Of a stretch of DNA of 64,000 nt, positions 231 through 22,647 are shown piece after piece. Within the stretch, counting starts at the first letter, position 1. Every line of letters starts with the position of its first letter. Source of the stretch: Burkholderiales bacterium (GTDB taxonomy: Bacteria; Pseudomonadota; Gammaproteobacteria; Burkholderiales; Ga0077523); assembly GCA_038324085.1 (NCBI GenBank), contig JBBQHP010000013.1, positions 30,276 to 94,275 of the forward strand, written 5' to 3'. Both the position numbers and the translations under genes were made by a program. The notes under the pieces were generated by a model. It had not been told where the DNA came from. It did not search any database and was given only the letters and a program-made list of their open reading frames with translations.

Positions 231-1052
231 TCACTGCGGGTTGGTCAGACCGCGGCGGACGTCGAGCACCGTCTCGAAGGTGAGGTCCCTGGTGTCGACC
301 ACCTGCGCCTTCAGCTCTCCCGATTCTCGTGCCATGAAATGGAAACGCACGCTGGGATTCTCGCTGATGGAGAAGTCGACGTCCGCGGTCATCACGGGGC
401 GACCGGCGTAGGTGACCGTGATGGAGCGGACGTACCACGCCGGGGTGTAGTACCGGGTCGACTGGTCCATGGCCAGACCAGAGAAATTGGGATGCATCAC
501 CGACAATCGCGCCACGGCGGGCTCTCCAGGGACGGACCCGTCTTCGAGCACGAGACGCATGCGACCGACCTTGCCCTCGGCATCGCCTTTGGTCGCGGGT
601 GCGGAGCAGCCCCCGGCCGCCTTCACGAAACGCGTCGCCGCGAACAGTTCGCCGGTATTGAGCTCGGCGATCGCCCGCACGTACGTGTAGTCCTCGATCC
701 GGACACGCGTCTCGATATCCGCGCGGCCGCTGTCCGGCGTGAACCGGAATATGGCAGCGATGGGCGAGGGATTCTGGTCAATAATGATGTAGAGCGCCTG
801 CACGTAACGGGCGTCGGTCTGGCGGGGACCGACGCTGACGGCGAGCGGAACCACCGCCGCGTCGGCCGCGCGGCCCGGTACGCGCAAACGAACGATATCC
901 TCGGCGGGGTCCTGGATCGGGCGATCCGCAAACAGATCGGCCCGCACCTTGCGCCAGATGTCGTTGTCGATCGAAGGATCCGCGGCGACCGCGCGCCCCG
1001 CAGTGAACAGGATCCCGAGGCCGAGGAAAGCCACTACGGCAATGCATTTCAT
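231..1052 (-). CDS. exported SoxY-SoxZ fusion-like carrier protein (quinoprotein-dehydrogenase-associated type)
   Basis: ATG at 1052 follows a GGAGGA RBS. Signal peptide is MKCIAVVAFLGLGILFTAGRAVA. The SoxY-like half ends in AAGGC (Cys codon 606-608) and the SoxZ-like half carries VMHPNFSG. It is the last gene of the xoxF-strand cluster. Confidence 0.75.
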   Translation of the reverse strand: MKCIAVVAFLGLGILFTAGRAVAADPSIDNDIWRKVRADLFADRPIQDPAEDIVRLRVPGRAADAAVVPLAVSVGPRQTDARYVQALYIIIDQNPSPIAAIFRFTPDSGRADIETRVRIEDYTYVRAIAELNTGELFAATRFVKAAGGCSAPATKGDAEGKVGRMRLVLEDGSVPGEPAVARLSVMHPNFSGLAMDQSTRYYTPAWYVRSITVTYAGRPVMTADVDFSISENPSVRFHFMARESGELKAQVVDTRDLTFETVLDVRRGLTNPQ

Positions 1053-1118
1053 CTTGACCGATCCTCCGTGGGCCGCCGCAGGGCCGAAAGCGCGGTACTC
1101 GTCCAAACGCGATTCCCG

Positions 1119-1460
1119 TCAATCCAGGAAACAGTCCTTCCGCACCTTGGATTCCATGCCGCGGAAGCGCTTCGCCATCGCCTGCGCCTCGGGCGCGTCG
1201 CGGACGACGGAACCCCGTTCGCCTGCGATCGAAATGGCGCGCGACGCCGTCTGCAGTTCGACGTATTCCTCGTACGGAATCTGCGCGGCCAGGGCGTCGA
1301 TCGCGCACGCGCACTTGTAGAGCGCCTCGTGCCGCAGCCCTTCATGCTCGTGCATGCAGGCTTCGACGTACTCGACGCGCTCCACGGTGGGAAAGTCGTT
1401 GGCATGCGCGGGCAGTGCCAACGCCAGGACGGCCGCGAGACAGCCCGCGCCCGGCCTCAT
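1119..1460 (-). CDS. small exported hypothetical protein with four Cys in the mature part
   Basis: ATG at 1460 with signal-like MRPGAGCLAAVLALALPAHA. Cys residues lie in ACMHEH, KCACAID and KDCFLD. It starts 13 nt after the protease stop and ends 66 nt before the SoxYZ-like start. No family recognised. Confidence 0.6.
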   Translation of the reverse strand: MRPGAGCLAAVLALALPAHANDFPTVERVEYVEACMHEHEGLRHEALYKCACAIDALAAQIPYEEYVELQTASRAISIAGERGSVVRDAPEAQAMAKRFRGMESKVRKDCFLD

Positions 1461-1473
1461 GCCGGCGCTCCGG

Positions 1474-2406
1474 TCACTGTTGCACTGTCAGCGCACGGCG
1501 GCGAAATTCCCTGGCATCCCGGTTCTCCGGCTCTTCCTCGAGCCAGCGCGCGGTCAACTGCAACAATTCCGGCTTGTCGCCGGCCGCTTCCAGCGTGCTC
1601 GCGCGCAGGAAGTAGGGAAGCTCCCCCGGCCGGCCCTCCCAGAACGTCTTGGCATCGCGAAGGGGGGCGATGGCCATCGCCTCGGATGCCGCCGCGCGCG
1701 TCACCCATTGCACGGGGATCGAGAAGAAGTAGTCGCCCCGGGCCGGCAGTCGGAACGTGAGCAATCCGAGCAGACGACCTTGCTCGTCGAACAGCCCGCC
1801 CCCGCTCGCACCGGATGTGAAGCCAGCGGTGGCCTGGATCACGTAGGCCCCGTCGAACGCATGCATCGCCGTGATCTGACCGACCGACGGCGACAGCGCG
1901 AAGCCACCGCTGTAGCCCAGCGCCATGACCGCGCCCCCGACCTGGGGGACATCGGCGGTGCCGAGATCCACCGGCATGATGGTGAGACCCGGGACGGTCA
2001 GGATGCAGACATCGTTCTGGGGCTGCGCCTGGCTCGCGGAGGCCTCCCAGCGCGTGGTGCCGGACAGCACTGTGACACTGGCGGCATTGCGTACCACATG
2101 GCAGTTCGTCGCTACGCGTTCCCGCGCGATGACCACGCCGCTGCCCATGCCGTTGCGTCCATGCACGGCACCTTGCGACGCCTCGACCCGCACGATGGCC
2201 GGGGCGAGCTTCTGCATCGCCGCACGCAGCGCCAATGCGTCGGCACGTGCGGCCGGTGCACAGAGAAAGAGCGCCAGGGCCAGCACCCCGACCGGATTCG
2301 GCGCACGAATCGAAGCCGCCCCGCCAGGGGGGCGGCGCGTCGACCTGAGCGCAGTGCGCGAGGGGCAGCATGGGGTATTGTCAGGGAACCGGATTTCCAT
2401 TCTCAT
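1474..2406 (-). CDS. exported trypsin-like (S1 family) serine protease
   Basis: Catalytic-triad motifs are TNCHVV (His), NDVCIL (Asp) and TSGASGGGLF (Ser). A hydrophobic signal segment reads VGVLALALFLCAPAARA. The start is uncertain: ATG at 2406 or 2400, both overlapping the xoxJ 3' end, or a later non-ATG start. Confidence 0.75.
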   Translation of the reverse strand: MRMEIRFPDNTPCCPSRTALRSTRRPPGGAASIRAPNPVGVLALALFLCAPAARADALALRAAMQKLAPAIVRVEASQGAVHGRNGMGSGVVIARERVATNCHVVRNAASVTVLSGTTRWEASASQAQPQNDVCILTVPGLTIMPVDLGTADVPQVGGAVMALGYSGGFALSPSVGQITAMHAFDGAYVIQATAGFTSGASGGGLFDEQGRLLGLLTFRLPARGDYFFSIPVQWVTRAAASEAMAIAPLRDAKTFWEGRPGELPYFLRASTLEAAGDKPELLQLTARWLEEEPENRDAREFRRRALTVQQ

Positions 2407-3262
2407 CGACCAGAGGCACACGATACTCGTGGAGTATCCGCAGAATCTGTGCCTGATTGCTGGCAATGAGCGTTTCGAGCTTCTGTTTCCATTGCGTCTC
2501 GCCGAAACGCGTTCCCATGGCGACGGCAAAATCGAACTTCACGCCGGGCTCCGACCTGAGCGGGATCACCACCAGTTCGACACTGGTCACGCGGCGCGCG
2601 GCAAAGCCCGCCACCGGACCCCACACGATCGCTGCGTCGATGTCGCCGGCCACGAGGTCCTTCTCCAGGATCTCGCCCGGATAGAAATCCGGTCGCGCGT
2701 TCAGCATGCGATACGGAGCGCCTGCATCCACCAGGTTGTGCCGCGCCAGCCATGCCGTGGCCGGAGACCGGTCGAACACACCGATGCGCAGCGACTTTGC
2801 CTTGTCGCCCATGGCCAGCAGATCGCCGGCAGACTTCACCCCGTCGAGCTTGCGCCCTTTCACATACACCAGCGCGTAAGTCGAGCGGAAATACGGGCCG
2901 GTCGTGGCGACCTGATCGAAACCGACCGGGACACCCAGCATCACATCGCAGCGATAGTCTTCGTCGGGCAGCTTGAATCGCAGCGTGTTGCGCACGAAGT
3001 TCATGCGTTGCGGGTAGAAGTAGTATTTGAGCGGCAGACCGAGTTCCTGCGCCATGAGTTCTGCGAGCTTGTTCTCGAATCCTTCACCGGCCTCGTTCGA
3101 GAACGGCAGGTTGCCGGGATCGCTGCAGACCCGGAACGCTGTCCGCTCTGCCGTTTCCGCGGCATCCGCCACCCGGACTGTCGCCACGTATGGCAGCGCC
3201 AGCGCCAGCAGCACCGTCACGGTTCGAGCGATGCCCTTGCGGGGGGAATCAGCCTGGTTCAT
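2381..3262 (-). CDS. xoxJ: MxaJ/XoxJ-like periplasmic solute-binding-fold protein
   Basis: Has an N-terminal signal. RVCSDPGNLPFSN and the overall sequence resemble the MxaJ/XoxJ family as I recall it. Its ATG at 3262 overlaps the cytochrome stop codon (ATGA). Confidence 0.8.
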   Translation of the reverse strand: MNQADSPRKGIARTVTVLLALALPYVATVRVADAAETAERTAFRVCSDPGNLPFSNEAGEGFENKLAELMAQELGLPLKYYFYPQRMNFVRNTLRFKLPDEDYRCDVMLGVPVGFDQVATTGPYFRSTYALVYVKGRKLDGVKSAGDLLAMGDKAKSLRIGVFDRSPATAWLARHNLVDAGAPYRMLNARPDFYPGEILEKDLVAGDIDAAIVWGPVAGFAARRVTSVELVVIPLRSEPGVKFDFAVAMGTRFGETQWKQKLETLIASNQAQILRILHEYRVPLVDENGNPVP

Positions 3263-3666
3263 TGCTTGAGCTCCTCGACCTTGGCACGGATGATGGCGCC
3301 GTCGGAGCGCCCTTTCAGGTATGCATAAAGATTGTCGAGATTGCCCATGACGGTCTTGCTCTCCTTGAACGAGACCATGCCTCTCTCGAGGCGCCCATCG
3401 GTGACCGTCGTCTTGAACTCGTCCTTGGTCAGCACCTTCAGGCTGTTGATCAGCGACGGACCCACGAGGCCCTGCTGATTGGCGCCATGGCAGCGGTCAC
3501 AGGCGGCCGCGCGCCAGGTGCGGAATCCCTTCATGGTGTTCGCATCGACCTTGTAGCCATCCACGACGGTATACAGGTCGGTCTTGACTGGGGCGGGGGT
3601 GTCGTCTGCGACCGCCAGGGTGACGGTGGCACTGACGGCAAGCACCGCGAGAATGACTCGATGCAT
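3259..3666 (-). CDS. small periplasmic c-type cytochrome (XoxG/ExaB-like electron acceptor)
   Basis: Signal peptide is MHRVILAVLAVSATVTLAVA. There is a single heme motif, CDRCH (codons 3487-3501). It lies immediately downstream of xoxF. Confidence 0.8.
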   Translation of the reverse strand: MHRVILAVLAVSATVTLAVADDTPAPVKTDLYTVVDGYKVDANTMKGFRTWRAAACDRCHGANQQGLVGPSLINSLKVLTKDEFKTTVTDGRLERGMVSFKESKTVMGNLDNLYAYLKGRSDGAIIRAKVEELKQ

Positions 3667-3761: not shown

Positions 3762-5579
3762 TCAGTTGCCGCCCGGAATCGCGAACACGGTGAGCGAACC
3801 GCCCAGATCCGTGTACTGGTTCAGCTCACGATATCCGCCCACGGCGCCGAGTCCGTCCGTGTCCTTGTCGAGACCTGCCGCCATGCCGATGCCGGCCCAG
3901 CCGCCGATGCCCGAATAGACGCCCACGTATTGCTTGCCCTTGTGCTCGTAGGTGAAGACGTTGCCGATGATCCCGGAGGGCGTCTTGAACTTCCACAGCT
4001 CCTTCCCATCGCTCTTGCGCACGGCTTTCAGATAGCCCTCGAGCGTGCCGTAGAACACCAGGTTGCCGGCCGTGGCGAGGGCCCCGCTCCAGACCGAGAA
4101 CTTCTCGGCCTTGGACCAGACGATCTTGCCGGCGCTCGCGTCCCAGGCGATGAAATTGCCCATGCCGCCATGGCTTCCCGGTGCCGGGTACATCGACAGC
4201 GTGGCGCCGACATACGGCTGACCTGCCGTGTACTCCACGGCGAACGGCTCGTAGTCCATGCACACGTGGTTGGTCGGCACGTAGAACAGCTTCGTATCCG
4301 GCGCGTAGGCCGCCGGCTGCTGGTCCTTGGTGCCGAGCGCAGCCGGGCAGACGCCCTTGGTGTTCACGTCGGGACCGTTCTGCGCGGTGCTGTACTTCGA
4401 AACCACCTGCGGCCGGCCGGTCTTCATGTCGACCTTGGTGGCCCAGTTCACTGTCGGATCGTATTTCTCGGCGACCAGCAGCGCGCCGTTGGTGCGATCG
4501 AGCGTGTAGCCGAAGCCGTTGCGATCGAAGTGCACCAGCGCCTTGGTCGGTTTGCCCTTGACGTTGAGGTCGGCGAGGATCATCTCGTTGATGCCGTCGA
4601 AATCCCACTCGTCGTACGGCGTCATCTGATAGACCCACTTGACCTTGCCTGTGTCCACGTCGCGGGCCCAGATGCTCATGGACCACTTGTTGTCGCCGGG
4701 ACGCTGCGCGGGGTTCCACGTGCTCGGATTGCCCGAGCCGTAGTACATCAGGTTCAGCGCCTTGTCGTAGCTGTACCAGCCCCAGGTGGTGCCGCCACCG
4801 ATCTTCCACTGGTCTTCCTTCCAGGTCTTGAGCGACGAATCCGCTCCGACCGGTTGGACCTTGCCGTCCATCCAGGTGGTGGTCTTCTGGGGGTCGATCA
4901 GCATTTCCTCGTCCGGGCCGACGCTGTAGCCCTTCCAGGCGAGCGACCCGTCATTCAGGTTGTATGCCGCGATGAAGCCGCGCACGCCCCATTCGCCGCC
5001 GCTGATGCCGGTGATCACCTTGTCCTTGAAGATGTGCGGAGCGTTGGTGTTGACGGCGCCGAGCTTCGGATCGCCGTTCTTCACCGACCAGACGACCTTG
5101 CCGGTCTTCGCATCCAGCGCGACCAGCGTGCTGTCGGCCTGCTGCAGGATCACCTTGTTCTCGCCGTAGGCGACGCCGCGGTTGACGGTATCGCAACACA
5201 TCTGTGGAATCACCGCCGGATCCTGCCTCGGCTCGTACTTCCACACGATCTTGTTGGTGTTGAGATCCATCGCGAACACCTTGTTCGGGAATGGCGAGTG
5301 GATGTACATCATGTCGCCGACGACGAGCGGCGAGCCTTCGTGGCCGCGCAGAACCCCGGTCGAAAACATCCACGCCACCTGCAGCTTGTTGACGTTCTTG
5401 TCGGTGACCTGCTTCAACTTGCTGTAGCGCTGGTTGTACATGTCGCCCGCCTGCATGGCCCAGTTCTTCGGGTCCGCGGTGAGCTTTTCTACGTCCGCGT
5501 TCGCCTGTGCCAGCAACGGTGTGGAAGCGACTACCGCGAGTGTCAGTGGAACCAGTACCTGTCTCAATCTGCGATTCAT
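3762..5579 (-). CDS. xoxF: PQQ-dependent methanol dehydrogenase, XoxF type (lanthanide signature)
   Basis: ATG at 5579 follows a GGGAGGA RBS, with signal peptide [27 protein letters not shown] vicinal Cys pair sits in QMCCDTV (5193-5198). WDFDGINEM carries the catalytic Asp plus the extra Asp (4596-4604). The MDH-type C-terminus reads [19 protein letters not shown]. The 730-aa track ORF over-extends the 5' end. Confidence 0.92.
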
Positions 5580-5960: not shown

Positions 5961-6533
5961 TCAGATTTTTTCTTGACGAAGTCCGCTTCGGAACTGCTCG
6001 ACTCGCGCCGTCAGCCAGCACCAGGCTTCGCGCTCGACCGGTCCCGCGGTCTTCTCGACCGCGGTCGCGAGATAGGCGAGCTCGCTGTCGATCTTCGCCG
6101 CCGGCAGCAGGTCCAGGCGGCTCACCAGGATCGCCGCCTCGATGACCGCGGCCTGGGCACGATTGAAACCATTCCAGCCCCGATGGACGGCGTCGGCGAC
6201 GACGTCGCAGTAGAGGCGCGGCCGCTGCGGATCGTCGTCGACGCGTTGCAATTCCAGTTCCCGATGGCTGACCGCGCCGGTCAGGCGCACACCGGCGATT
6301 CGCTCGCAGGCGACGACGGGCCAGTCGCGGTGCCCGGTCAGGCAGCCTGCGAACACGCGCACGTCGTCCACCACGTTCACGGCAGCAACGCGCGAGGCGA
6401 GCACGTTGTCGAGCGTGCTCGACGGGCGGAACGGGGCCAGGACAATCTGCGCCCCTTCCAGGCGGATGCCCATCGGCGCGATGTGCACCCGGCCGTCGGG
6501 CGCCCGAGTCGTGACGACGGTCTCCCAGATCAT
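5961..6533 (-). CDS. DUF447-family protein (H4MPT-biosynthesis associated, FMN-binding-fold type)
   Basis: MIWETVVTTRAPDGRVHIAPMGIR... resembles the DUF447 family as I recall it. It is the last gene of the pterin-branch operon. ATG at 6533. Confidence 0.65.
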   Translation of the reverse strand: MIWETVVTTRAPDGRVHIAPMGIRLEGAQIVLAPFRPSSTLDNVLASRVAAVNVVDDVRVFAGCLTGHRDWPVVACERIAGVRLTGAVSHRELELQRVDDDPQRPRLYCDVVADAVHRGWNGFNRAQAAVIEAAILVSRLDLLPAAKIDSELAYLATAVEKTAGPVEREAWCWLTARVEQFRSGLRQEKI

Positions 6534-6546
6534 CGGCGCACCCGGC

Positions 6547-7962
6547 TCACGAGCGCTTTCGCGCGCGTTTCGCGAGCGTGGTCCCCGCGGCCTTCTGGCG
6601 GAGCAGGTCCGGTTGCGCGGGTGCCGTGGCCGCACCCCAGTGCAATTCCTCGTCCTGCACGTAGCGCTTGCCGAGCTGCCATCCGACCTGGGCCCGCGCC
6701 AGCTCCACGCCCAGGTAGAACGCATGGGCGGCGTCGTCCTCGAGACCGAGCGACGGCCAGAGCGCGAACGGGTCGGATGCGACGTGGTGGCCGTCGCGAT
6801 TGAGTGCGTGCAACCCGTCCTCGGCCACCAGGACCCGGTAGTTCGGGTCGCGGACCGCCGCTGCCAGTTCGGCGATATCCGCCACGCCGTGCGGGAACGG
6901 GCGCTTCTCGTGCAACGCCATCAGCGCGTTCGAGATGTCCTTGGGCAACGCCCCCTCTTCGCGCGCCGCAAACATGATCCGGCGCGCGGCATCGGCTTCG
7001 CGTACGACGGAACGGGCGTGCTCGCTCACCGCCACGACCAGCACGGCGCCGACGTGCAGTTCGGAGGCGATCCCGAACAGGAGTGCGTTCATGCCCATCG
7101 TGTCTGCATGCGTGAGTTCCGTCACGTTGCCGATGCCCATCATGATGGCGCAATCGGGCCGCGCCGCCCGCAATGCGTGGTAGCGCGCTATCGAATCGGT
7201 GAAGCCGAAATGGATCGGATCGAGGATCGGGTCGGCCAGGTAATCGCGTCCGATGCGATCGAGCGCATCCATCGCGCGCAGCAGCGACGGCAGGTCACCG
7301 GGTTCGCGCGGGATCAGCACGGGTGTCGCGGCAACCTCTTCCGCGATCCAGAGCGTGTCCTCGCGCAGGCTGAGCAGAAAATCCGCGCCGGCACGAGCGC
7401 CACGCAACAATTCCTCCGGATCGAACGAATCCACGCTCACCGCGAGCCCGAGCGATTTCAATCGCACCACCGCGTCCTCGAGGTGTGGAAACGGCGTCTG
7501 CGGCAGGCAGCCGAGGTCGATCACGTCGGCACCCTGCGCGAGGAATTCGCGGGCGCGCGCCTCGATTGCCGCCAGGGACAGCTGCGGCGCATCCACGATC
7601 TCCGTGAACATCTTCGCCTCGTAGCGCGAGAGATCATGCTTCGCTGCGACATGGCCGAAGAAACGCGGCAGATCGGCGAGTTCTTCCGGGCCGCGGACCA
7701 CCGGAACCCCGAGGCGCGCGGCGACGCGGTCCAGGTCACCGCGGCATCGTCCCGGCACCACGACGCGGTCGACGTCGTCGACACTGGGGAGGCGGCGCTC
7801 GATCATGTCCGCTGTCATGAGCGCGGCGACGCTCAAGCCGAGCTCCTGTATGCGCCACTCGAACGCCGGCGCCGGCAGGGATCCGAGGACGCGCCGCAGG
7901 CTCTTCTCCGCGAGCTTCCCGGTCAGGAACAGGATGCGCTCGCCCGGCACGAATGCGTCCAC
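6547..7962 (-). CDS. dihydropteroate synthase-like protein (archaeal/H4MPT type) with N-terminal extra domain
   Basis: The pterin-binding TIM-barrel-like region carries GADVIDLGC...VSVDSF...MMGIGNVTE. An N-terminal extension of about 130 aa precedes it. GTG start at 7962. Confidence 0.8.
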   Translation of the reverse strand: MDAFVPGERILFLTGKLAEKSLRRVLGSLPAPAFEWRIQELGLSVAALMTADMIERRLPSVDDVDRVVVPGRCRGDLDRVAARLGVPVVRGPEELADLPRFFGHVAAKHDLSRYEAKMFTEIVDAPQLSLAAIEARAREFLAQGADVIDLGCLPQTPFPHLEDAVVRLKSLGLAVSVDSFDPEELLRGARAGADFLLSLREDTLWIAEEVAATPVLIPREPGDLPSLLRAMDALDRIGRDYLADPILDPIHFGFTDSIARYHALRAARPDCAIMMGIGNVTELTHADTMGMNALLFGIASELHVGAVLVVAVSEHARSVVREADAARRIMFAAREEGALPKDISNALMALHEKRPFPHGVADIAELAAAVRDPNYRVLVAEDGLHALNRDGHHVASDPFALWPSLGLEDDAAHAFYLGVELARAQVGWQLGKRYVQDEELHWGAATAPAQPDLLRQKAAGTTLAKRARKRS

Positions 7963-7978
7963 GGGTGCAATCGCCGCG

Positions 7979-8560
7979 CTACTTCACCGCCAGCGGCGCG
8001 CCGGCATCGATCTCGCCCTGCCGCTGCGCCAGGCGCGCTTCGATGACCGTGCGTAGCGCTTCGAAGGTGTCGACGACCGTCACTCGATCGAATCCGGAAA
8101 GACGTCGCGTCGCGTCGAGATCCACGGGCCGTGGATAGACCGTGACCCAGTCGCCGGGCGATTCGGTTTCCATGCGGGGCGCCGTGTCGCAAGCGAAGAC
8201 GATGGACGGGATCCGGCACTTGCCCGCCTGCGCGAAGATGTTGGTGGGCAAGGTGTCGGAGATCCCCGCGACGCACTTCGCGACGGTGTTGGAGGTGGCC
8301 GGAGCGATCACTACCGTGTGGTAGTGGCCGTGGTAGAAAAGGCCCACCGGCGCCGCACTCGCCGTGTTGTCGCGGAAGATCCGGAAGCCCGCGCGCAATT
8401 CGGTCAGCGGATGGCCGTACATGTTCAGGACCTCTTCGCCGGCGCTCGACAGGAACAGATCCACGTCTGCGAGACTGTTGGCGAGTTCCAGGCACTCGCG
8501 CAGGAAATGGCCCGACCCGGTGAGTCCCCAGGCAAGGCGCGCGCGTTCCGGGCGATCCAT
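7979..8560 (-). CDS. flavoprotein of the archaeal AfpA / DmrB type (candidate dihydromethanopterin reductase)
   Basis: LAWGLTGSGHFLRECLEL...VVIAPATSNTVAKCVAGISDTL is typical of the flavoprotein (FMN) family. Size and context match the DmrB described for Burkholderia. Confidence 0.65.
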   Translation of the reverse strand: MDRPERARLAWGLTGSGHFLRECLELANSLADVDLFLSSAGEEVLNMYGHPLTELRAGFRIFRDNTASAAPVGLFYHGHYHTVVIAPATSNTVAKCVAGISDTLPTNIFAQAGKCRIPSIVFACDTAPRMETESPGDWVTVYPRPVDLDATRRLSGFDRVTVVDTFEALRTVIEARLAQRQGEIDAGAPLAVK

Positions 8561-8563
8561 CCT

Positions 8564-8941
8564 TCAGTAGTCGTACTTCACGTAGCGGAAACGCTGGTCG
8601 TCGGCCGGGGTCCCCGTGAGCGCCCCACCGGCCTTGGCGGGCTGCCAGTGAACCACCTCCTCGATCTTCTGCGCGAGCTCGAAATCGCGGTCGGTGATGC
8701 CCTTGGCGTCGTGGCTCTGCAGCTTGACGATCACGAACGCGTACGAAACCGTGAGGTCCGGGTGATGCCACGCGGCCTCCGCGAGGTGGCCCACCGTGTT
8801 GACGACCATGAGCGTGCCCTTCCAGCCTTCCGTGCGGAACTTGCGGCGGATCCAGCCGTCCTCGAAATACCACTTCGGGAGATCCCGTTCGAGCCGCTGC
8901 TTGATCTCGGCTTCCGAGTAGGTGTCGTGCTGGTCTGCCAT
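8564..8941 (-). CDS. pterin-4a-carbinolamine dehydratase family protein
   Basis: Carries the AAWHHPDLTVSYAFVIVKLQSHDAKGITDRDFELA signature (HHP...H...D). Confidence 0.8.
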   Translation of the reverse strand: MADQHDTYSEAEIKQRLERDLPKWYFEDGWIRRKFRTEGWKGTLMVVNTVGHLAEAAWHHPDLTVSYAFVIVKLQSHDAKGITDRDFELAQKIEEVVHWQPAKAGGALTGTPADDQRFRYVKYDY

Positions 8942-9041
8942 GGCGCTCGCTCCGCATCCGGTGGGTCCATCCGAACTTTACCCGATCGCTCCCGGGTGTA
9001 GCATCCCGCCACCGAGTTCAGAGAGACGCCCGCGCTCCGAC

Positions 9042-9452
9042 ATGGACATGAACGAACCGCTGTCGCACCTTCACCCGCTGGTCTGGAACCACGAAGACGC
9101 GCGGGACGAGCGCTCGCTCTTCATCCGCGAACTGGTGGTGCCCGCGCACATCGGGGTCTATGCGGCGGAGCAGGGTCGTACGCAGCAACTGCGCTTCGAC
9201 CTCGTCGTGACCCTGCAGCCCCCGTTCGATTGGCACGACCGCCTGGACGACGTGTTGAACTATGACGGGCTGCGCCAGGGCATCCTCGCGATCGTGGGCG
9301 CCGGCCACATCAACCTGCTGGAGACGCTCGCGGAAAGAGTCGTCGAGCTCTGCTTCGGCTATGCGCAGGTGCAGGCGCTGCAACTGCGCATCTCGAAACT
9401 CGAAGCGCACAGCGACTGTCTGGTCGGCTACGAAACGCGCCGACACCGCTAG
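9042..9452 (+). CDS. folB: dihydroneopterin aldolase
   Basis: IRELVVPAHIGVYAAEQGRTQQLRFDLVV...VLNYDGLRQGI...LLETLAERV matches the FolB pattern. ATG at 9042; the 176-aa track ORF over-extends. Confidence 0.8.
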   Translation: MDMNEPLSHLHPLVWNHEDARDERSLFIRELVVPAHIGVYAAEQGRTQQLRFDLVVTLQPPFDWHDRLDDVLNYDGLRQGILAIVGAGHINLLETLAERVVELCFGYAQVQALQLRISKLEAHSDCLVGYETRRHR

Positions 9453-9460
9453 CGGGCGGG

Positions 9461-10276
9461 TCATTCCCGCGCGATCAGGACTTCGCCCTTGCCGTCGCAG
9501 CCCAGATCGCCGAGCCAGCGCCCGAACGGGCCGGCTCGCGCGAACTGCCTGAATGCGCGGCCGTGGCCCGACAGCGATTCGAGCAGCAACCGGATCGCGA
9601 GCAGGTCGTGGCGCCCGTTGCGATTGAACGTGGGCGGCAGCTGCGTCCGCGGCTCGTCGAACAGCAGGGTGCCGCGCCGCATCAGGTATCCCGGCATGAT
9701 CCCCACCCGGCCCAGCACCACCAGGGTACCCGCCAGCATGCGGGCGGCGCAGTAGTCGCCCGCGGCGCCTTCCACCAGCAGCAGCCCGCGGCGCATCCGG
9801 TCTCCTGCGCGGTCGCCGACCCGGCCACGCACGACGATGGCCCCGCCACTCATGCCGCGCAGTTCGCCGGCCCGCCCCGAACCCGCGAAAGCGCCCGCGT
9901 CGCCCGTCACTTCGATCCGGCCCGCGCGCATTCCGGCGCCCACGTAGTCACCGGCATCGCCACGCACGGTGATCGAGCCGCCGCGCATCGCCTCCCCGGT
10001 GTAGTCACCGGCCACGCCGACGATGGTCAGCTCGCCCCCTTCGAGCCCGGCGCCGGCGCGAATCAGGCGGTCGTCGGCGCCGTCGATCACGATCCGGCTC
10101 GCGTCATCACCGCGGATGGCGAACAGATCGCCGACCTGCCAGGCTTCGTTCCATCCCTGCAACGCGATGGCGGCGATCTCCTTGCGCGTCCTGCCGGCGA
10201 GCGCGCTCGGGCGCAGTCCCGACACGTCGATGGCGCTGGGCGGCGAGTGCCTCAGGGTGAAGCGCAGTGCGCTCAT
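9461..10276 (-). CDS. fhcC: formyltransferase/hydrolase complex subunit C (formylmethanofuran dehydrogenase subunit C-like)
   Basis: Shows the repetitive beta-helix pattern GDAGDYVGAGMRAGRIEVTGDAGAFAGSG...GAAGDYCAARM typical of FwdC/FhcC. Confidence 0.85.
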   Translation of the reverse strand: MSALRFTLRHSPPSAIDVSGLRPSALAGRTRKEIAAIALQGWNEAWQVGDLFAIRGDDASRIVIDGADDRLIRAGAGLEGGELTIVGVAGDYTGEAMRGGSITVRGDAGDYVGAGMRAGRIEVTGDAGAFAGSGRAGELRGMSGGAIVVRGRVGDRAGDRMRRGLLLVEGAAGDYCAARMLAGTLVVLGRVGIMPGYLMRRGTLLFDEPRTQLPPTFNRNGRHDLLAIRLLLESLSGHGRAFRQFARAGPFGRWLGDLGCDGKGEVLIARE

Positions 10277-10343
10277 GCATGCCCCCGCGCCATTGCACGA
10301 CGGTCCGCCGGGCCCAGGACTCGCAGCCGCGAATCGCCGGGGT

Positions 10344-11282
10344 TCACTCGAGCACCTGCCTGAGATGAAAGTGATGCGGGCCCAGCTTGCCGCCGTAGTT
10401 CCCGGCGGTGATGCCGATCACGCCCGCCCGCAGTCCACCCCGGCACGCCGCCATGATGCCTGCGCGCATGGCGCTGGCGATGCTCGGCGCATCGAGCCCG
10501 TCGATGACGATCTCCAGCACCGCGCCCACGCCCGCCGGCAGCGCCGAGCGCACCGCGCCCACGAGGGTCGGACAGTACGCATCGTTGGTCGAAGCGACCA
10601 GTGCCGGATATTTCGAGCCCACCTTCGACCCGGAGCGCACCACCCCGCCCGGGAACGGCAGGATCACGTTGCGTACCTTGCGCATCGCGCCGACTGCGCG
10701 CGCCGCCGCCGCGAGCGCCGCCGCCGCATCGGCCGCCAGGATCAGGAAATTGCCTCCGCCGATGCCTTTCACCAGACCGGCTTTCTCTTCGCATACGAAC
10801 TCGCCATCCATCACCGGGATGCGCCAGTGGCGGCGGCCGCCGATCAGCTTCGAGATCTGCCAGCCGTCGCCGAAGTAGCGCAGCGCGCCGCCCAGGTTCA
10901 GCCATTCGTGGGCGATCGCCGGGGGCACGCCGTTGAACGCTGCCGTGCCCGGGCAGGTCAGCACGCACTGGCCGGTGCGACGCTCCAGGTGCTTCTGCAG
11001 ATCCTTGCTCGACATCGCGAAGATCAGGATGGCGACGCCGGGTCGGCCGTCCGGCGTCTCGCCCGGTGCCAGATCGCGCTCGATGCCGGCCTCGCAGCCG
11101 CAAGCGATCACCGAGGTCGCGAAACCCGTGGCCGAGACCGCCGCATGCCTCGCCCACGTGCGATCGTCCGCCGTGATGACGAGCCGCGTCGCGCGCATGC
11201 CGAAAGCCTCGGCGAACGTGTCCTCGATGGCGACGCCGTCGATGGCCAGCGCGCCCGCCACGTCACCGTTCCCGGCAGTCAT
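10344..11282 (-). CDS. fhcD: formylmethanofuran--tetrahydromethanopterin N-formyltransferase
   Basis: IDGVAIEDTFAEAFGMRATRLVITA is the Ftr N-terminal signature. It overlaps the fhcA 3' end by 20 nt. Confidence 0.9.
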   Translation of the reverse strand: MTAGNGDVAGALAIDGVAIEDTFAEAFGMRATRLVITADDRTWARHAAVSATGFATSVIACGCEAGIERDLAPGETPDGRPGVAILIFAMSSKDLQKHLERRTGQCVLTCPGTAAFNGVPPAIAHEWLNLGGALRYFGDGWQISKLIGGRRHWRIPVMDGEFVCEEKAGLVKGIGGGNFLILAADAAAALAAAARAVGAMRKVRNVILPFPGGVVRSGSKVGSKYPALVASTNDAYCPTLVGAVRSALPAGVGAVLEIVIDGLDAPSIASAMRAGIMAACRGGLRAGVIGITAGNYGGKLGPHHFHLRQVLE

Positions 11283-12927
11283 GGACGACCAGCCGCGGCG
11301 CCTGACCGCACGCGCACACTTCCTCGTCCGAGATGCGGAAGCTCGCCATCGACTGCGTCTGGTAGCGCGCGAACCACGCTTCGAGCTGTCGCTCGATGCC
11401 GCGATCGAACGGCGGCTTCACCGTGTGGATGCTGCCCCGCGTGACCGCCACGATCGCGCCGCGCTCCGCCACCAGCTGCCCATCCTTGAACACCCAGCGC
11501 GGGCGGGCGAACATCGTCTCCGGATCGGCGTCGGGCTCGTAGATCACCACGTCGGCGCAGGCCCCGACGCCGAGATGGCCGTGATCCCCAAGGCCGAGGA
11601 TGCGGGCCGGCGCCGCCCGCGTCATGATCGCGATCTCGTACAGCGAATATTCGCGGTCGAGCGCCCCGAGTGCGCTCATCTTCGCGGCTTCCGGATTGAT
11701 CGACGCCAGCACGTCGTTGCGGAAAGTCCGGTCCATCAGCAGCTTGATCAGATGCGGATAGCTCGTGAACGGCCCGCCGTTGGGATGATCGGTGGTGAGG
11801 AACACGCGCCACGGATCGCGGATCATCAGGAACAGTTCGAGCCCGATGGCCCATTGCAATGCATTGACGAAATCGCGGTCGCGATAGCGGAACGGCACGA
11901 CGCCGCAACCGGCGTCGCACTCGATATCCATGATCACCCATTTCGCCGGGCGTCCGTGGCGCGCATTGCGATACTGCAGCATGCTGTCGCCGGAGGCCGT
12001 GACGGTCTGGCCGAACATGATCTGGCCCACGTCCACGGTCACGTTGGGAGCGGCGTTGACGGCCTCCGCGATGCGCCCCGCGGCAGACGAGAACTTCCGA
12101 TCCCCTTCCGTTCCATAGCTGTGGAACTGCAGATGCGTCAGGTGGATCGGCAAGCCTTCGGCTGCGGCGATGGTCGCGAGCGTGCTGTCGACATTGCCCG
12201 GCACGCCCAGGTTGCTCGCATGCACGTGCAGCGGATGCGGTATGCCCAGCTCGTGCACGGCCAAGGCGAGTTCGCGCACGATCTGGCGCGGCGTGACGCG
12301 ATAGTGCGTGTGCGGCTCGTCGACATCGAGCTTGCGCTGATTGAACTTGAAGGCGCTGATGCCCCCCGCATTGACGACCTTGACGCCGATGGCGTGGGTC
12401 GCATGGAGGATCCACGCAACGTAGTCGCGCACCGCGCGCGGGTCCGCGCCGGTAGCCAGCTGGTCGAGAAAGAAATCGTCGTTGCCGAGCAGCGCGTACG
12501 CGCCCTTGTCCACGATGGGCGTATCGCCCATCTCCAGATGCGCCTGCCGTGCATTGACGGGCAGCATCGCCGGTTCGAAGCAGGCCGTGTAACCCATTGC
12601 CGCATAGCGATAGCCCGTGGCGAGCGTCGACGGCGCCGGCCCGCCGGTGCAGGCGCCGCAGATGTCGGTCGCCGGCAGCGCCTCGCGTCGGTTGAACTCC
12701 GGCAGGAGCGCGCGCGCGATGTTCACCTTGCCGCCGCCGATATGCGTGTGCAGATCGATGGCACCGGCCATCGCGATCGTGCCGTTCGCATCCCAGACAC
12801 GATCGACGGATTCGCCCGGCTTCGGACCGGCGACGATGCGATCGTCGCGGATGTAAAGATCGCGCACGACATCGTCGACGCCATGCGCCGGATCGATGAT
12901 TCTCGCGCCGGTCAGTCTGGTCAGCAT
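11263..12927 (-). CDS. fhcA: formyltransferase/hydrolase complex subunit A (amidohydrolase, FwdA-like)
   Basis: Amidohydrolase motifs: AGAIDLHTHIGGGK near the N-terminus and VFLTTDHPNG later. ATG at 12927 lies 4 nt after the fhcB stop. An alternative upstream ATG exists at 12966. Confidence 0.9.
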   Translation of the reverse strand: MLTRLTGARIIDPAHGVDDVVRDLYIRDDRIVAGPKPGESVDRVWDANGTIAMAGAIDLHTHIGGGKVNIARALLPEFNRREALPATDICGACTGGPAPSTLATGYRYAAMGYTACFEPAMLPVNARQAHLEMGDTPIVDKGAYALLGNDDFFLDQLATGADPRAVRDYVAWILHATHAIGVKVVNAGGISAFKFNQRKLDVDEPHTHYRVTPRQIVRELALAVHELGIPHPLHVHASNLGVPGNVDSTLATIAAAEGLPIHLTHLQFHSYGTEGDRKFSSAAGRIAEAVNAAPNVTVDVGQIMFGQTVTASGDSMLQYRNARHGRPAKWVIMDIECDAGCGVVPFRYRDRDFVNALQWAIGLELFLMIRDPWRVFLTTDHPNGGPFTSYPHLIKLLMDRTFRNDVLASINPEAAKMSALGALDREYSLYEIAIMTRAAPARILGLGDHGHLGVGACADVVIYEPDADPETMFARPRWVFKDGQLVAERGAIVAVTRGSIHTVKPPFDRGIERQLEAWFARYQTQSMASFRISDEEVCACGQAPRLVVHDCRER

Positions 12928-12931
12928 CGCG

Positions 12932-14197
12932 TCACCCGAGCCGGCCCGCGAGTGCGTCGACAACACTTGCCGCCGAGGGCAGCGTCGAGACGCGCACGCG
13001 TGGCAGGTACAAGGTCACCACCTTGTCGGTGCGCAGCAGATGCCCGGCCGCATCGATGCCCGGTGTGGCCACGGGGATGAATACGTCGACCCCGTGATCG
13101 ACGACGAGATCGGCACGTCCGAGCACGACTCGCGGCAGGCTCCCGGACAGCGGTGGAGGCGCGTGCCCCAGGCTGGATACCCAGATCAACAGATCCGCCT
13201 CGCCGCGCGCCAGGACCCGAGGCAAGGCATGCCGCGACGGATCGAAATCGACCCGGCCGTTGGCGTAGCTTGCCGGCAGCGGCACCCCCGCCTGCCATGT
13301 CTGCACGGCGTTCGCGGTGAGGTCGCCATCGGTTCCGGCGAGCGGCAGCCCGACGAACCGCGTGTCGCGGTTGAGTGAACGGATGCAACGCGCCAGTGCC
13401 TGCACCGTAAGTTCGGCGTGCGGCCAATCGAGATCGGCAGCGGACCAGACGACCACCCCATACCGGGCCGCACGCATCCAGTCGACGCAACGTTCGAGGG
13501 TGCCGGGGGCAACGCCGGTGATCCTTCCGGCGTCCACGGGCTGCCGGTCTGCCAGCGCGCCGAGCATCGCGACCACCGCCGGCAATTGTCCCGGCGCCGC
13601 ATCGAGTGGCAGGTGCTCCACGTTCGCCGGCAAGGCGCGGCGGGCCTCGCCTTCGATCGCGTCGACGGTCACGATGCGGCGCGGTGCCCCGGTGCCGCCC
13701 AGGAACGGCTCGGGCGCGATGATCCGCTCGACGAAGCGGGGAAAACGCCGATGCCAGCCGGTGCCGATCAGGATCATCAGATCGGCTCGATTGCGCGCTT
13801 CGGCCAGCGTCGTCGTGATCGCGCCACCTTCCTGCAGCGCATGCAGGTTGCGATACTTGACGGGCCCGTGCACGTGATCGACCACGGCACCGAGTCGACG
13901 CGCAAGCGCCAGCACGGAGCGCATGCCCGCAACGTCGACATCGAGGCCGGAGATGACCGGCCGCCGTCCGGCGCGCAACAGGGCGGCGGCGGCGTCGAGC
14001 GCTTCGTCGAAATCGACCGGGCGGCCGGCGACGCGCGGACGGGCCCGTGTGGCCGCGTCCGTCCCGAGCGTCGCATACGCTGCGGTCGCACGTTCGCAGG
14101 CGCCGCGAAGGGGGCGCAGGGTCGCGCCCACGACATCGACTTCGAGATCGTCGCAGAGCAGACCGCAGAAGGCGCAGGTGGCAGTCCGGGCAGCCAT
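12932..14197 (-). CDS. fhcB: formyltransferase/hydrolase complex subunit B (FwdB-like)
   Basis: The N-terminus TATCAFCGLLCDDLEV and overall molybdopterin-oxidoreductase-like sequence are typical of FhcB. Confidence 0.85.
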   Translation of the reverse strand: MAARTATCAFCGLLCDDLEVDVVGATLRPLRGACERATAAYATLGTDAATRARPRVAGRPVDFDEALDAAAALLRAGRRPVISGLDVDVAGMRSVLALARRLGAVVDHVHGPVKYRNLHALQEGGAITTTLAEARNRADLMILIGTGWHRRFPRFVERIIAPEPFLGGTGAPRRIVTVDAIEGEARRALPANVEHLPLDAAPGQLPAVVAMLGALADRQPVDAGRITGVAPGTLERCVDWMRAARYGVVVWSAADLDWPHAELTVQALARCIRSLNRDTRFVGLPLAGTDGDLTANAVQTWQAGVPLPASYANGRVDFDPSRHALPRVLARGEADLLIWVSSLGHAPPPLSGSLPRVVLGRADLVVDHGVDVFIPVATPGIDAAGHLLRTDKVVTLYLPRVRVSTLPSAASVVDALAGRLG

Positions 14198-14254
14198 CGG
14201 CGCAGCTTACCGCGTTGGCGTGCCCGGGGCGAGCCGCTGCGGCCGGCATGGTTG

Positions 14255-14270
14255 TGGCAAACTGACTGCA
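14255..14270 (+). promoter_or_regulatory. candidate sigma-54 (-24/-12) promoter for the mptG-fae operon
   Basis: TGGCAAactgaCTGCA has GG (14256-57) and GC (14268-69) at the canonical 12-nt register. It matches 9 of 12 defined consensus positions (TGGCACG-N4-TTGCW) and lies about 50 nt upstream of the mptG ATG. Confidence 0.35.
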
Positions 14271-14318
14271 AACTCGCGGCGCCCATGCAGCGTCATCACG
14301 CACGGATCTCGCATTGAC

Positions 14319-15380
14319 ATGACTCGAGAGTGGCAGGACCTGACCGGATCGCGCGGGTCGGACGACCGGCCCGCGATCGTGCGCGTGTCAGCGCCCGCGC
14401 GGCTGCATCTCGGCTTCGTCGACGTGAGCGGCAGCATCGGTCGGCGCTTCGGCAGCATCGGCCTGACCCTGGAAGGCCTCGCGACGGTCGTCGAAATGCG
14501 CCGCTCCGACAACCTCCAGGTCGACGGGCCGGGCGCTGCCCGGGCGCTCGATTTCCTGCAACGTCTGATGGACGAGCACGATCCGTCCGACGCGGTCGCA
14601 CTGCGCATCGTGAGCGCGATCCCCGAACACGCCGGCCTCGGCTCCGGCACGCAGATGGCGCTCGCCATCGGACGCGCGTTCTGCGCGCTGTTCGGACTCG
14701 ATTATTCATCCGCTGCCATGGCCGCGCGCATGGATCGTGGTGCGCGTTCCGGTATCGGCATCGGCGCCTTCGATCAGGGCGGTTTCGTCGTCGACGGCGG
14801 GCGCGCGCCGGGCGGCGACCTGCCGCCGGTCATCGCACGCCTGCCCTTTCCGTCGTCGTGGCGCGTACTGCTCGTGTTCGATCGTGCCGAACGCGGCCTG
14901 CACGGCGATGACGAACGCACGGCCTTTCGCAAGTTGAAGGCTTTTCCGCAGACACGGGCCGCGCATCTCGCGCATCTCGTGTTGATGCGGGCGATGCCGG
15001 CGCTCGCCGAACAGGACTGCGCGCGCTTCGGCGAAGCCGTGGGCGAGATCCAGCGGGTCGTGGGCGATTATTTTGCATTGGCACAGGGCGGCCGGTTCAC
15101 GAGCGACGCAGTGGCGGCGGTGCTGGCATGGCTCGAGACGCGCGGCGTGGCCGGGATCGGCCAGACGTCGTGGGGTCCGACCGGATTTGCGGTGGTCGAT
15201 TCCGAGACGCGCGCGCACACCCTGCTGGCGGAACTCCGGCAGGCGTTCCCGGACCAGCCGCAGCTCGGCTTCGCGGTGGTGCGCGGACGCAACCACGGTC
15301 ATCGGCTCGAAGCGATGTCCCGGCTGGCGGGCACACGAGCGGCCCCGGGCGTCGCGTCGCGAAGCCAGTCGAAAAACTGA
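14319..15380 (+). CDS. mptG: beta-ribofuranosylaminobenzene 5'-phosphate synthase (GHMP-kinase fold)
   Basis: VRVSAPARLHLGFVDVSG and SAIPEHAGLGSGTQMALA are GHMP/MptG motifs. The start may be the ATG at 14319 or the GTG at 14379. Confidence 0.8.
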   Translation: MTREWQDLTGSRGSDDRPAIVRVSAPARLHLGFVDVSGSIGRRFGSIGLTLEGLATVVEMRRSDNLQVDGPGAARALDFLQRLMDEHDPSDAVALRIVSAIPEHAGLGSGTQMALAIGRAFCALFGLDYSSAAMAARMDRGARSGIGIGAFDQGGFVVDGGRAPGGDLPPVIARLPFPSSWRVLLVFDRAERGLHGDDERTAFRKLKAFPQTRAAHLAHLVLMRAMPALAEQDCARFGEAVGEIQRVVGDYFALAQGGRFTSDAVAAVLAWLETRGVAGIGQTSWGPTGFAVVDSETRAHTLLAELRQAFPDQPQLGFAVVRGRNHGHRLEAMSRLAGTRAAPGVASRSQSKN

Positions 15381-15462
15381 GTGTCGAGGCGCCACGCCCG
15401 CGACCGTCGCTGCGCCAGGCAATGCGCCAGGTCTCCCCGAAAGCCAAGACGGTACTGAACCC

Positions 15463-16371: not shown

Positions 16372-16385
16372 ACCGGCGCGGAACC

Positions 16386-20342: not shown

Positions 20343-20374
20343 TTGTTCAACGACGACAACGATGGAGGAGAGTC

Positions 20375-20884: not shown

Positions 20885-20911
20885 CCGGGCGCGACGGTCG
20901 TTCGTCGGCGT

Positions 20912-21607: not shown

Positions 21608-21639
21608 GAGCAGGTGGCTGAGCGCACGTTGACGACACC

Positions 21640-22629: not shown

Positions 22630-22647
22630 CCGCGCTATCCTCGCGGC

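Follow-up and report, generated by a model that had tools for sequence, protein, structure and literature searches.

Why does an operon for a lanthanide-type methanol dehydrogenase continue into genes for a serine protease, a small cysteine-bearing protein and a fusion of two sulfur-oxidation domains? XoxF-type lanthanide methanol dehydrogenases are the most widespread methanol-oxidizing enzymes, and the question is raised by a methylotrophy locus of a high-GC Burkholderiales bacterium. The locus lies in a 64-kb stretch of DNA (GCA_038324085.1, contig JBBQHP010000013.1, positions 30,276-94,275 of the forward strand), referred to throughout as the window. The first 5.6 kb of the window carries, on the minus strand, six genes in a row: xoxF-xoxG-xoxJ-S1 protease-113-aa protein-SoxYZ fusion. 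The 113-amino-acid (aa) product is called the small protein below, and the SoxYZ fusion the carrier. Judged by its conservation and genomic linkage, the small protein appears to be an unrecognized core partner of the carrier and XoxF. More tentatively, we suggest that the three proteins encoded after xoxJ could serve XoxF as a thiol relay in the periplasm, and would represent a compact form of the quinoprotein relay system. The link between the carrier and XoxF was already known; the new elements are the small-protein family, a lineage-specific protease coupled to it, and a compact module without metallohydrolases.

The overlaps, the short gaps and the absence of internal terminators indicate that the six genes are co-transcribed. 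The ATGA at 3259-3262 is shared by xoxG and xoxJ, the protease ATG overlaps the 3′ end of xoxJ by 26 nt (no alternative start codon precedes the hydrophobic signal core), 13 nt separate the protease gene from that of the small protein, and the 66 nt between the latter and the carrier gene contain a GGAGGA Shine-Dalgarno sequence. At the intergenic sites of the operon we detected no promoter-like site and no credible terminator-like site. A convergent plus-strand gene terminates at 224, so that the carrier gene is the last of the operon. A preliminary interpretation of this DNA made from the letters alone, the sequence-only reading, had described the trio as co-transcribed behind xoxFGJ on the strength of these same overlaps and gaps, and that description holds. 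N-terminal signal-peptide-like sequences point to export of all three proteins.

The dehydrogenase itself has each of the marks of a lanthanide-type XoxF: a score above the cutoff of its pyrroloquinoline quinone (PQQ) dehydrogenase family, the D-x-D arrangement (WDFDG at residue 326, with the extra Asp two residues past the catalytic Asp), a vicinal Cys-Cys at residues 129-130 (codons 5193-5198, where the sequence-only reading had placed it), and adjacent xoxG and xoxJ genes. Lanthanide dependence is predicted from the motif and the gene context, and the xoxG product is the presumed electron acceptor of XoxF.

The small protein, the protease and the carrier

No piece of the trio is better conserved, or less understood, than the small protein, a point absent from the sequence-only reading. 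It contains five cysteines, one in the signal peptide and four in the mature part (about 93 aa, 10 kDa, isoelectric point 5.2; codons 1356-1358, 1311-1313, 1305-1307 and 1131-1133), the latter being the four counted earlier. Searches of Pfam and NCBIfam gave no real match, Pfam at E ≤ 10 returning only the spurious TraW_N; MxaI, the Pfam family of the methanol dehydrogenase beta subunit, was not among the matches at that threshold. A profile search against the sequences of the PDB also found nothing (best E 0.44), and neither did a Foldseek comparison of folds with the PDB (best E 2.1), made from an AlphaFold (AF2) model that shows an all-alpha, five-helix bundle (predicted local distance difference test score, pLDDT, 85). 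Inspected RefSeq examples are labeled "hypothetical protein," we found no paper or family model, and the family appears to be undescribed. It is not a rare one. A word-index search gave 14 relatives, a figure corrected by an exhaustive profile search, which recovered 632 cluster representatives (50% identity) and scored 373 of these at E ≤ 1e-10. Conservation over 142 representatives is 91-100% for the four mature cysteines, and an [ND]-D-[FY]-P-T motif, Arg28, Asp55, Gly80 and Arg87 are conserved as well. One apparent relative, P0360 (211 aa), joins a RecN-like N terminus and a low-complexity stretch to the C-terminal two thirds of the small domain; it is probably a chimera of assembly or gene calling and was not used.

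In a scan of one genome per GTDB species the small protein was encoded in 153 species, nearly all of them Burkholderiales and relatives. Its neighbors were counted at the 80 best of these species loci, each denominator being the loci with enough sequence. XoxJ is encoded just upstream in 64 of 69, XoxF is upstream in 51 of 54, and the carrier follows downstream in 52 of 71. The sequence-only reading stood or fell with conserved linkage to PQQ dehydrogenases and with conservation of the carrier cysteine; the linkage proves strongly conserved in other genomes, and the cysteine, discussed below, is invariant among homologs. The family also has members on 123 records of plasmids or chromids, for the most part from Alphaproteobacteria (pSymB of Sinorhizobium, Azospirillum and Phyllobacterium among them); the carrier is on 100, with a matching genus distribution. 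Eleven records were listed by both searches, and in each of them no more than about 1.1 kb separates the two genes. Four of five annotated plasmid examples combine the small protein with the carrier, relay metallohydrolase 2 and XoxF; the fifth, from Paraburkholderia, has the small-protein gene beside fae and no carrier within 8 kb. If the small protein is what this pattern suggests, it would be a third, unnamed and widely conserved component of the carrier/PQQ-dehydrogenase system.

Three further observations concern its placement. On a Paraburkholderia largidicola chromid (L097:7244-8300) the gene directly follows fae in a tetrahydromethanopterin (H4MPT) cluster, and neither xoxF nor a gene of SoxYZ type lies within 8 kb of it. 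The small protein occurs in plasmid records of Paraburkholderia (eight) and Rhizobium (seven), two genera missing from the carrier search's incomplete list of genera. In two Massilia-like metagenome-assembled genomes (MAGs; L069 and L091) the order is xoxF, small protein, xoxG, xoxJ and a protein of about 240 aa, which recalls a subunit-like placement.

Where the protease is present, it ties the small protein still more closely to the operon. The catalytic motifs reported earlier are intact: TNCHVV (His103, codon 2098-2100), NDVCIL (Asp132, codon 2011-2013) and GASGGGLF (Ser201, codon 1804-1806), and the three residues are invariant in 30 aligned homologs. PF13365 (Trypsin_2) spans residues 88-215. 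The tail past the domain, put at about 90 aa in the sequence-only reading, is about 70-95 aa; most homologs are "TPR-containing S1 peptidases" of 340-360 aa (TPR, tetratricopeptide repeat), and in the window clade the tail has been cut to roughly one repeat. The only cysteines of the mature enzyme, Cys102 directly before the catalytic His and Cys134 two residues past the catalytic Asp (window 2011-2103), are invariant in 30 of 30 homologs. They may form a disulfide that ties the triad together and makes activity redox sensitive; a redox-sensitive activity through such cysteines has reportedly been proposed for MarP. The closest PDB sequences are MarP (3k6y) and DegP/Q/S, and the enzyme shares with the HtrA/Do (S1C) group a His-Asp-Ser triad in a chymotrypsin fold; at the family level it falls outside that group, with no PDZ match and a best NCBIfam score (TIGR02037) of 64 bits against a cutoff of 416.

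All protease homologs whose context was inspected are encoded directly after xoxJ and before the small-protein gene, and the xoxJ-protease overlap is conserved, which suggests translational coupling. By this placement the protease appears to be dedicated to xoxFGJ operons. It is present in 48 of 74 small-protein loci and absent in 26, and we found no homolog in 72,556 plasmid records; it seems to be a lineage-specific addition, found in only some Burkholderiales. In one lineage the protease domain and the small protein are fused in a 342-aa polypeptide, in which the small protein has lost its signal peptide and its domain stands where the TPR tail would otherwise be. The fusion occurs on five independent contigs in the order xoxF-G-J-fusion-SoxYZ, as in the window. 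A Rosetta-stone fusion of this kind is an argument for joint action of protease and small protein. That the small protein might have diverged from the tail that it replaces was tested and rejected (hhalign probability 0.1). We found no relevant literature on a protease in xox clusters, and its coupling to the small protein appears to be undescribed.

The carrier matches TIGR04557, the PQQ-dehydrogenase-associated SoxYZ-like family, over the full model (1-226; 244.4 bits, cutoff 140, E 8.5e-73), and by sharing an operon with xoxFGJ it has the genomic association for which the family is named. Profile searches give the carrier and the protease a family and the small protein none. A SoxY domain (PF13501, residues 39-149) and a SoxZ domain (PF08770, residues 174-261) follow one another in a single polypeptide, which falls short of the models for true SoxY (TIGR04488, with GGCGG; 61.5 bits, cutoff 125) and true SoxZ (TIGR04490; 53.2 bits, cutoff 76). 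The sequence-only reading had recognized both the fusion and the internal position of its GGC cysteine, and we agree on each. Rather than ending in a C-terminal GGCGG arm, the SoxY part has Cys149, the only cysteine of the mature carrier of about 27.5 kDa, followed internally by SAPATKGD; in an alignment it falls on the SoxY carrier cysteine in the terminal GGC of 4uwq_B, from the crystal structure of SoxB-SoxYZ. Thirty-two homologs, down to 51% identity, all have K-A-[AS]-G-G-C-S-A-P-x-x-K, and GGC[ST]A[PA] recurs in some 100 more copies encoded at betaproteobacterial loci, as well as in alphaproteobacterial carriers at 37% identity. The AF2 model (pLDDT 85, pTM 0.82) has two beta-sandwich domains that superpose on SoxY and SoxZ structures with target-normalized TM-scores of 0.77-0.91. 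Residues of about 145-163, comprising the GGC loop and a short linker, have a pLDDT of 59-75, and this segment is predicted to be mobile, which the lower values fit. Taken with the alignment, the model makes the carrier look like a SoxY-type covalent carrier whose arm has been turned into an internal loop. At one metagenomic xoxF locus (L093:10884-12897) the carrier gene is directly followed by genes for a sulfite-oxidase-type molybdoenzyme and a c-type cytochrome (SorAB-like), neighbors that hint at a sulfite connection of the carrier system.

The company that these genes keep elsewhere is larger. A full betaproteobacterial cluster contains xoxF-G-J, the protease, the protein of about 240 aa, the small protein, a metallo-beta-lactamase-fold protein (MBL), the carrier, a beta-propeller protein, an MxaD-like protein, a second MBL, a second carrier and a thioredoxin (Trx)-like protein. 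We classified the 61 loci with 2.5 kb on both sides. Protease, ~240-aa protein, small protein, MBL and carrier are together in 30 and the ~240-aa and small proteins only in 14; the full partner set minus the protease is found in 6, and the compact arrangement of the window (protease, small protein, carrier) in 4. The remainder have the small protein alone (3), the small protein and the carrier only (2), the protease, ~240-aa protein, small protein and MBL without the carrier (1), or the protease and the small protein only (1). In the 64-kb window we found no MBL gene (by tblastn with both types) and no gene for a ~240-aa, Trx-like, rhodanese-like or second carrier protein. These MBLs are the SoxH-like zinc metallohydrolases (TIGR04558 and TIGR04559) that usually partner the carrier; their absence from the window had not been remarked in the sequence-only reading, and relatives in the window clade also lack them beside the carrier. 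The window thus appears, from its gene content, to represent a reduced variant, common to L001, L009, L010, L012-L015 and the fusion locus L095.

Protease and carrier are both present in 34 of the 61 loci, the protease only in 2, the carrier only in 8 and neither in 17; that is, the carrier accompanies 34 of 36 proteases and occurs in 8 of 25 loci without one. The co-occurrence is real but phylogenetically confounded, the counts not being phylogenetically independent; the XoxF tree has at least two separate places where both the protease and the carrier/MBL set are lacking. A hydrolase, either an MBL or the S1 enzyme, is encoded at 40 of 42 carrier loci. Other partners of the carrier system elsewhere are Trx-like proteins, a CXXCW rhodanese-like protein and the SoxH-like hydrolases. 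Considered together with published examples (PMC12997753, PMC11237559), all of the contexts, whether H4MPT, glutathione or ped-type catabolism, share the PQQ dehydrogenase itself.

The protein of about 240 aa belongs to a second unannotated exported family (about 225-255 aa), whose gene immediately precedes that of the small protein in 65 of 78 betaproteobacterial loci, as well as in Azoarcus and S. meliloti; the family has no match in Pfam or NCBIfam. We considered whether its "CC" might mimic the Cys-Cys of XoxF, and rejected the idea: the pair is found in Burkholderiales members and is absent from the Azoarcus and S. meliloti homologs.

A possible thiol relay and the explanations that compete with it

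From the gene structure, homology, conservation, linkage and natural fusion that we observe, we infer a mechanism in which the intact SoxYZ fusion would act as a covalent carrier through Cys149 on its flexible internal loop, working uncleaved. The carrier thiol would take up transient adducts, whether a mixed disulfide, a persulfide or S-sulfonate, or a hemithioacetal, and these would keep the active site of XoxF functional, a site whose strained vicinal disulfide would form as XoxJ loads PQQ. The small protein, as a partner of the carrier and of XoxFGJ, probably serves in docking or redox exchange, and would bring to the target the carrier and, in this lineage, the protease as well. The protease would clear unfinished or damaged components, for example XoxF-XoxJ intermediates or spent carrier. 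In the calcium enzyme, MxaJ is the chaperone for PQQ insertion, and the disulfide ring of methanol dehydrogenase forms when MxaJ loads PQQ (PMC12276312). The thiol- and sulfur-type partners, the sulfite dehydrogenase neighbor at L093 and a disulfide ring that is built on PQQ loading fit a redox or sulfur service of XoxF, and the hydrolase gene beside 40 of 42 carriers fits a relay that loads and releases. Service of the vicinal Cys-Cys of XoxF by the module was a further proposal of the sequence-only reading.

Several points weigh against such a relay. MxaFI has been assembled in E. coli without proteins of this kind (PMC12276312). In a randomly barcoded transposon (RB-TnSeq) study of P. putida, with lanthanides absent, the genes for the carrier and its hydrolase gave minimal phenotypes (PMC12997753). 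Nearly everywhere else the carrier is accompanied by metallohydrolases; these are missing here, and the window may not encode a complete relay. The four cysteines of the small protein may form purely structural disulfides. Variovorax and Paraburkholderia keep the small protein without a nearby carrier, which implies that its role extends beyond the carrier. Finally, the presence of the carrier at 34 of 36 protease loci leaves room for a protease that could act on the carrier. With these points counted, we hold the thiol relay to be a possible reading and a tentative one.

Like true SoxYZ, the carrier might instead deal with sulfane sulfur, sulfite or thiosulfate, either to detoxify reactive sulfur that attacks PQQ or the vicinal disulfide, or in a sulfur oxidation dependent on a XoxF homolog, like that of Advenella ThdT. 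We think this unlikely, and it is the alternative that fares best. The homology of the fusion to SoxY and SoxZ and the conserved carrier cysteine favor it, as do the SoxH-like, rhodanese-like and Trx-like partners found elsewhere and the SorAB-like sulfite dehydrogenase at L093. Thiosulfate inhibits growth of H. denitrificans on methanol, and a hypothesis of PQQ protection has been described (PMC12997753); ThdT, a XoxF homolog, is reported to couple tetrathionate to glutathione, according to a passage in which that work is cited (bioRxiv 10.1101/683490). However, the carrier scores well below the cutoffs for true SoxY and SoxZ, no soxAX, soxB or soxCD gene was seen beside the operon among the selected window open reading frames (ORFs), the only ones scanned for them, many hosts of fusion carriers do not oxidize thiosulfate (PMC11237559), and the immediate gene context is one of methylotrophy.

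The sequence-only reading had proposed that the thiol carries periplasmic formaldehyde as a hemithioacetal, or another adduct. In an extended form of that proposal, which we consider decidedly unlikely, the carrier cysteine would trap formaldehyde or another aldehyde, XoxF and XoxG would oxidize the hemithioacetal to a thioester, and a hydrolase would release the acid, the whole forming a protein-tethered, glutathione-independent relay for aldehyde oxidation. The hydrolase would be a SoxH-like metallohydrolase in most genomes and possibly a serine hydrolase here. MBL-fold enzymes include thioester hydrolases, for example glyoxalase II, and an MBL at L011 with a weak match to TIGR03413 backs the idea of a thioester hydrolase; the near-constant presence of an MBL or S1 enzyme at carrier loci, and the MBL gene adjoining the carrier in alphaproteobacterial examples, point the same way. 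So do the one-carbon (C1) or aldehyde-producing contexts: xoxF with fae/H4MPT here, flhA-fghA in S. meliloti and ped in Pseudomonas (PMC12997753). The chemistry, however, is read from gene context, and cytoplasmic formaldehyde pathways are already present in all organisms examined. The protease, with its TPR tail, has the typical make-up of an HtrA/MarP-type peptidase and belongs to no esterase family, three loci (L045, L051 and L060) have the carrier with neither hydrolase nearby, and the scheme leaves no role for the small protein or for the Trx-like and rhodanese-like partners. A related scheme, which we find very doubtful, would make a protein-bound thiol the co-substrate of XoxF and its cytochrome: the loop cysteine would tether formaldehyde or another electrophile, the adduct would be oxidized on the enzyme and unloaded by a dedicated hydrolase, an MBL elsewhere and the serine hydrolase in the compact module, and the small protein would serve in docking. 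If true, this would be a new glutathione-independent, carrier-protein-based pathway of periplasmic oxidation.

It is highly improbable, in our judgment, that the S1 protease cuts the fusion after GGC to yield a canonical C-terminal SoxY arm and a separate SoxZ, as the sequence-only reading had also proposed. The co-occurrence counts and the joint absences on the XoxF tree are what such a substrate relationship might produce, the flexibility predicted for the GGC loop and linker would make them accessible, and in the compact arrangement of the window the protease is the only hydrolase beside the carrier. But the SAP that follows the proposed cut is as invariant as GGC itself, and GGCSAP is equally invariant in alphaproteobacterial carriers without this protease (the plasmids gave no protease match against 100 for the carrier). 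Among sister loci, two that encode the protease (L052, L068) and three that do not (L045, L051, L060) have linkers identical to the letter. Together, the invariance and the identical linkers indicate that cleavage by this protease is no general requirement. Furthermore, the protease is found without a nearby carrier at L008 and L065, it is fused in nature to the small protein rather than to the carrier, and no split SoxY or SoxZ version was seen among 3327 homologs. HtrA-type enzymes usually cut after small aliphatic residues, not after Cys.

Least credible of all is that protease and small protein serve general periplasmic quality control, or are unrelated hitchhikers with xoxFGJ, so that the trio is no functional unit: the protease is absent from 26 of 74 small-protein xoxFGJ clusters and from all plasmid-borne ones, architectures vary widely and no phenotype is known, but gene order is constant in many genera, the conserved xoxJ-protease overlap suggests translational coupling, the natural fusion sits inside an xoxFGJ-SoxYZ operon, the close protease homologs examined all directly follow xoxJ, and the small protein adjoins the carrier across two proteobacterial classes.

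The thiol relay is the reading that we tentatively favor. The minimal three-gene module, free of metallohydrolases, should be a simpler test bed for genetics and biochemistry, and it bears both on the function of the PQQ-associated SoxYZ-like system and on the maturation of XoxF. If it is true that the carrier services the vicinal disulfide or PQQ, or that it carries substrate, the swinging arm of SoxY would have found a new use outside sulfur oxidation.

Genomic setting of the operon

Coordinates are collected in Table 1. The coding status of the called frames follows from their G+C content at third codon positions (GC3, 0.76-0.88, against 0.49-0.72 in antisense and alternative ORFs), from the family scores and from synteny conserved in dozens of genomes. 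GC3 rules out the long antisense and alternative ORFs across 339-3328. Extending the protease ORF upstream to a TTG at 2529 is unnecessary, as is extending xoxF by 125 codons to 5954; the true xoxF start is the ATG at 5579, preceded by GGGAGGA.

Table 1. Genes and sites of the XoxF operon (window positions), with examples of the accompanying ~240-aa family (locus positions)
Feature	Position	Strand	Evidence
xoxF, lanthanide-type PQQ methanol/ethanol-family dehydrogenase	3762..5579	-	TIGR03075, 753 bits vs cutoff 480
xoxG, c-type cytochrome	3259..3666	-	PF13442; weak TIGR03874 (methanol-metabolism cytochrome) match; conserved synteny
xoxJ, quinoprotein-dehydrogenase-associated periplasmic binding protein, MxaJ/XoxJ chaperone family	2381..3262	-	TIGR03871, 273.9 bits vs cutoff 212
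S1 (HtrA/MarP-like) serine protease, long signal region, vestigial TPR-type C-terminal tail	1474..2406	-	PF13365 Trypsin_2
Small exported four-Cys helical protein, 113 aa	1119..1460	-	No Pfam/NCBIfam/PDB match; AF2 all-alpha model
SoxY-SoxZ fusion, PQQ-dehydrogenase-associated SoxYZ-like carrier	231..1052	-	TIGR04557, 244 bits vs cutoff 140; PF13501 + PF08770
Carrier Cys149 codon, in invariant KA[AS]GGCSAP motif, internal loop predicted flexible	606..608	-	Aligned to SoxY carrier Cys
~240-aa family, examples	L008:9071-9802, L011:9084-9761, L004:9243-10004, L092:7944-8642, L096:7201-7929, L098:7252-7923		

The 380 nt between xoxF and the DUF447 gene upstream have a GC content of 0.59, the lowest in the neighborhood. 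The operon promoter presumably lies in this region, in which no sigma-70-like site was found.

The operon adjoins a tetrahydromethanopterin/fae/fhc island for formaldehyde oxidation. This large set of H4MPT-linked C1 genes (5961-24257) includes DUF447, DUF6513 (dihydropteroate-synthase-like), a flavoprotein, pterin-4a-carbinolamine dehydratase, folB, fhcC/D/A-like genes (GXGXG, FTR, amidohydrolase), ATP-grasp genes and fae (20375-20884). Farther along, at 53740-63729 on the minus strand, is an assimilatory sulfur cluster with a CysG/CobA-like tetrapyrrole methylase (53740-54495), a sulfite/nitrite reductase hemoprotein (58117-59811) and sulfate/thiosulfate-type ABC transporter components (61878-62714 and 62734-63729); it lies 50 kb from the carrier gene and has no evident connection with it. 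In the closest complete relative (L001, the 5.29-Mb chromosome of a Burkholderiales MAG) a mau methylamine dehydrogenase cluster (14018-19286) lies about 3 kb past the SoxYZ-like gene. The matching side of the window ends at position 1.

Relation to known systems

As the sequence-only reading had said, the carrier belongs to a family that has a name and no experimental function. NCBIfam names both the family and its link to PQQ dehydrogenases, and the link has been published, with no function assigned (PMC12997753, PMC11237559); the earlier reading did not mention that it was in the literature. The carrier has been noted beside PQQ dehydrogenases in Pseudomonas, rhizobia, methanotrophs and animal symbionts, again with no function given. 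In P. putida the carrier (PP_2677) and a SoxH-like hydrolase (PP_2678) are encoded between pedE and pedH, and in M. extorquens homologs of the carrier system lie near xoxFGJ (META1p1703-1705; PMC12997753); for PP_2677 we found no functional data in the literature beyond that 2026 review. Clades of SoxYZ fusions beside PQQ alcohol dehydrogenases and soxH, or beside xoxF and fdh, are described from lucinid and mussel symbionts and from many free-living bacteria, without a function (PMC11237559), and H. denitrificans has an equivalent gene ensemble (PMC11582611).

The system closest to the trio is the quinoprotein relay system (TIGR04557 with TIGR04558/TIGR04559) of P. putida, M. extorquens and the lucinid-symbiont SoxYZ-S2/S4 clades. 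The window carrier is of the same family, with the same invariant GGCSAP loop, and it stands in the same neighborhood of a PQQ dehydrogenase with a vicinal Cys-Cys, a cytochrome and a TIGR03871 binding protein. Unlike that system, the window has no metallohydrolase, rhodanese-like or Trx-like partner in its 64 kb, and its carrier follows an S1 protease and the small protein. The small protein figures in no published or NCBIfam description of the relay system, though it widely accompanies the carrier.

With canonical SoxYZ (PDB 2ox5, 4uwq) the carrier shares both domain folds and a homologous carrier cysteine in a GGC context. It differs in that the two subunits are fused, the cysteine is internal (GGCSAP) rather than in a C-terminal GGCGG, the scores fall below the cutoffs for the true proteins, and the setting is methylotrophic, with no SoxAX, SoxB or SoxCD among the selected ORFs scanned.

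The protease shares its chymotrypsin-fold His-Asp-Ser domain with HtrA (DegP/DegQ/DegS) and with MarP (Rv3671c), which provide its best PDB sequence matches. In contrast to these enzymes, it has no PDZ domain, its homologs carry a C-terminal TPR region, a cysteine pair near the catalytic His and Asp is invariant, and its placement suggests that it is dedicated to xoxFGJ.

A last comparison concerns the small protein. Release of the MxaJ chaperone from the calcium enzyme requires MxaI, and XoxF has no MxaI (PMC12276312). Like MxaI, the small protein is small and exported and is encoded with a dehydrogenase and a J-type chaperone, and in the Massilia-like genomes its gene directly follows xoxF. 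Unlike MxaI, it is acidic (pI 5.2), with no Pfam match at E ≤ 10 and no fold match, and the analogy is only a hypothesis.

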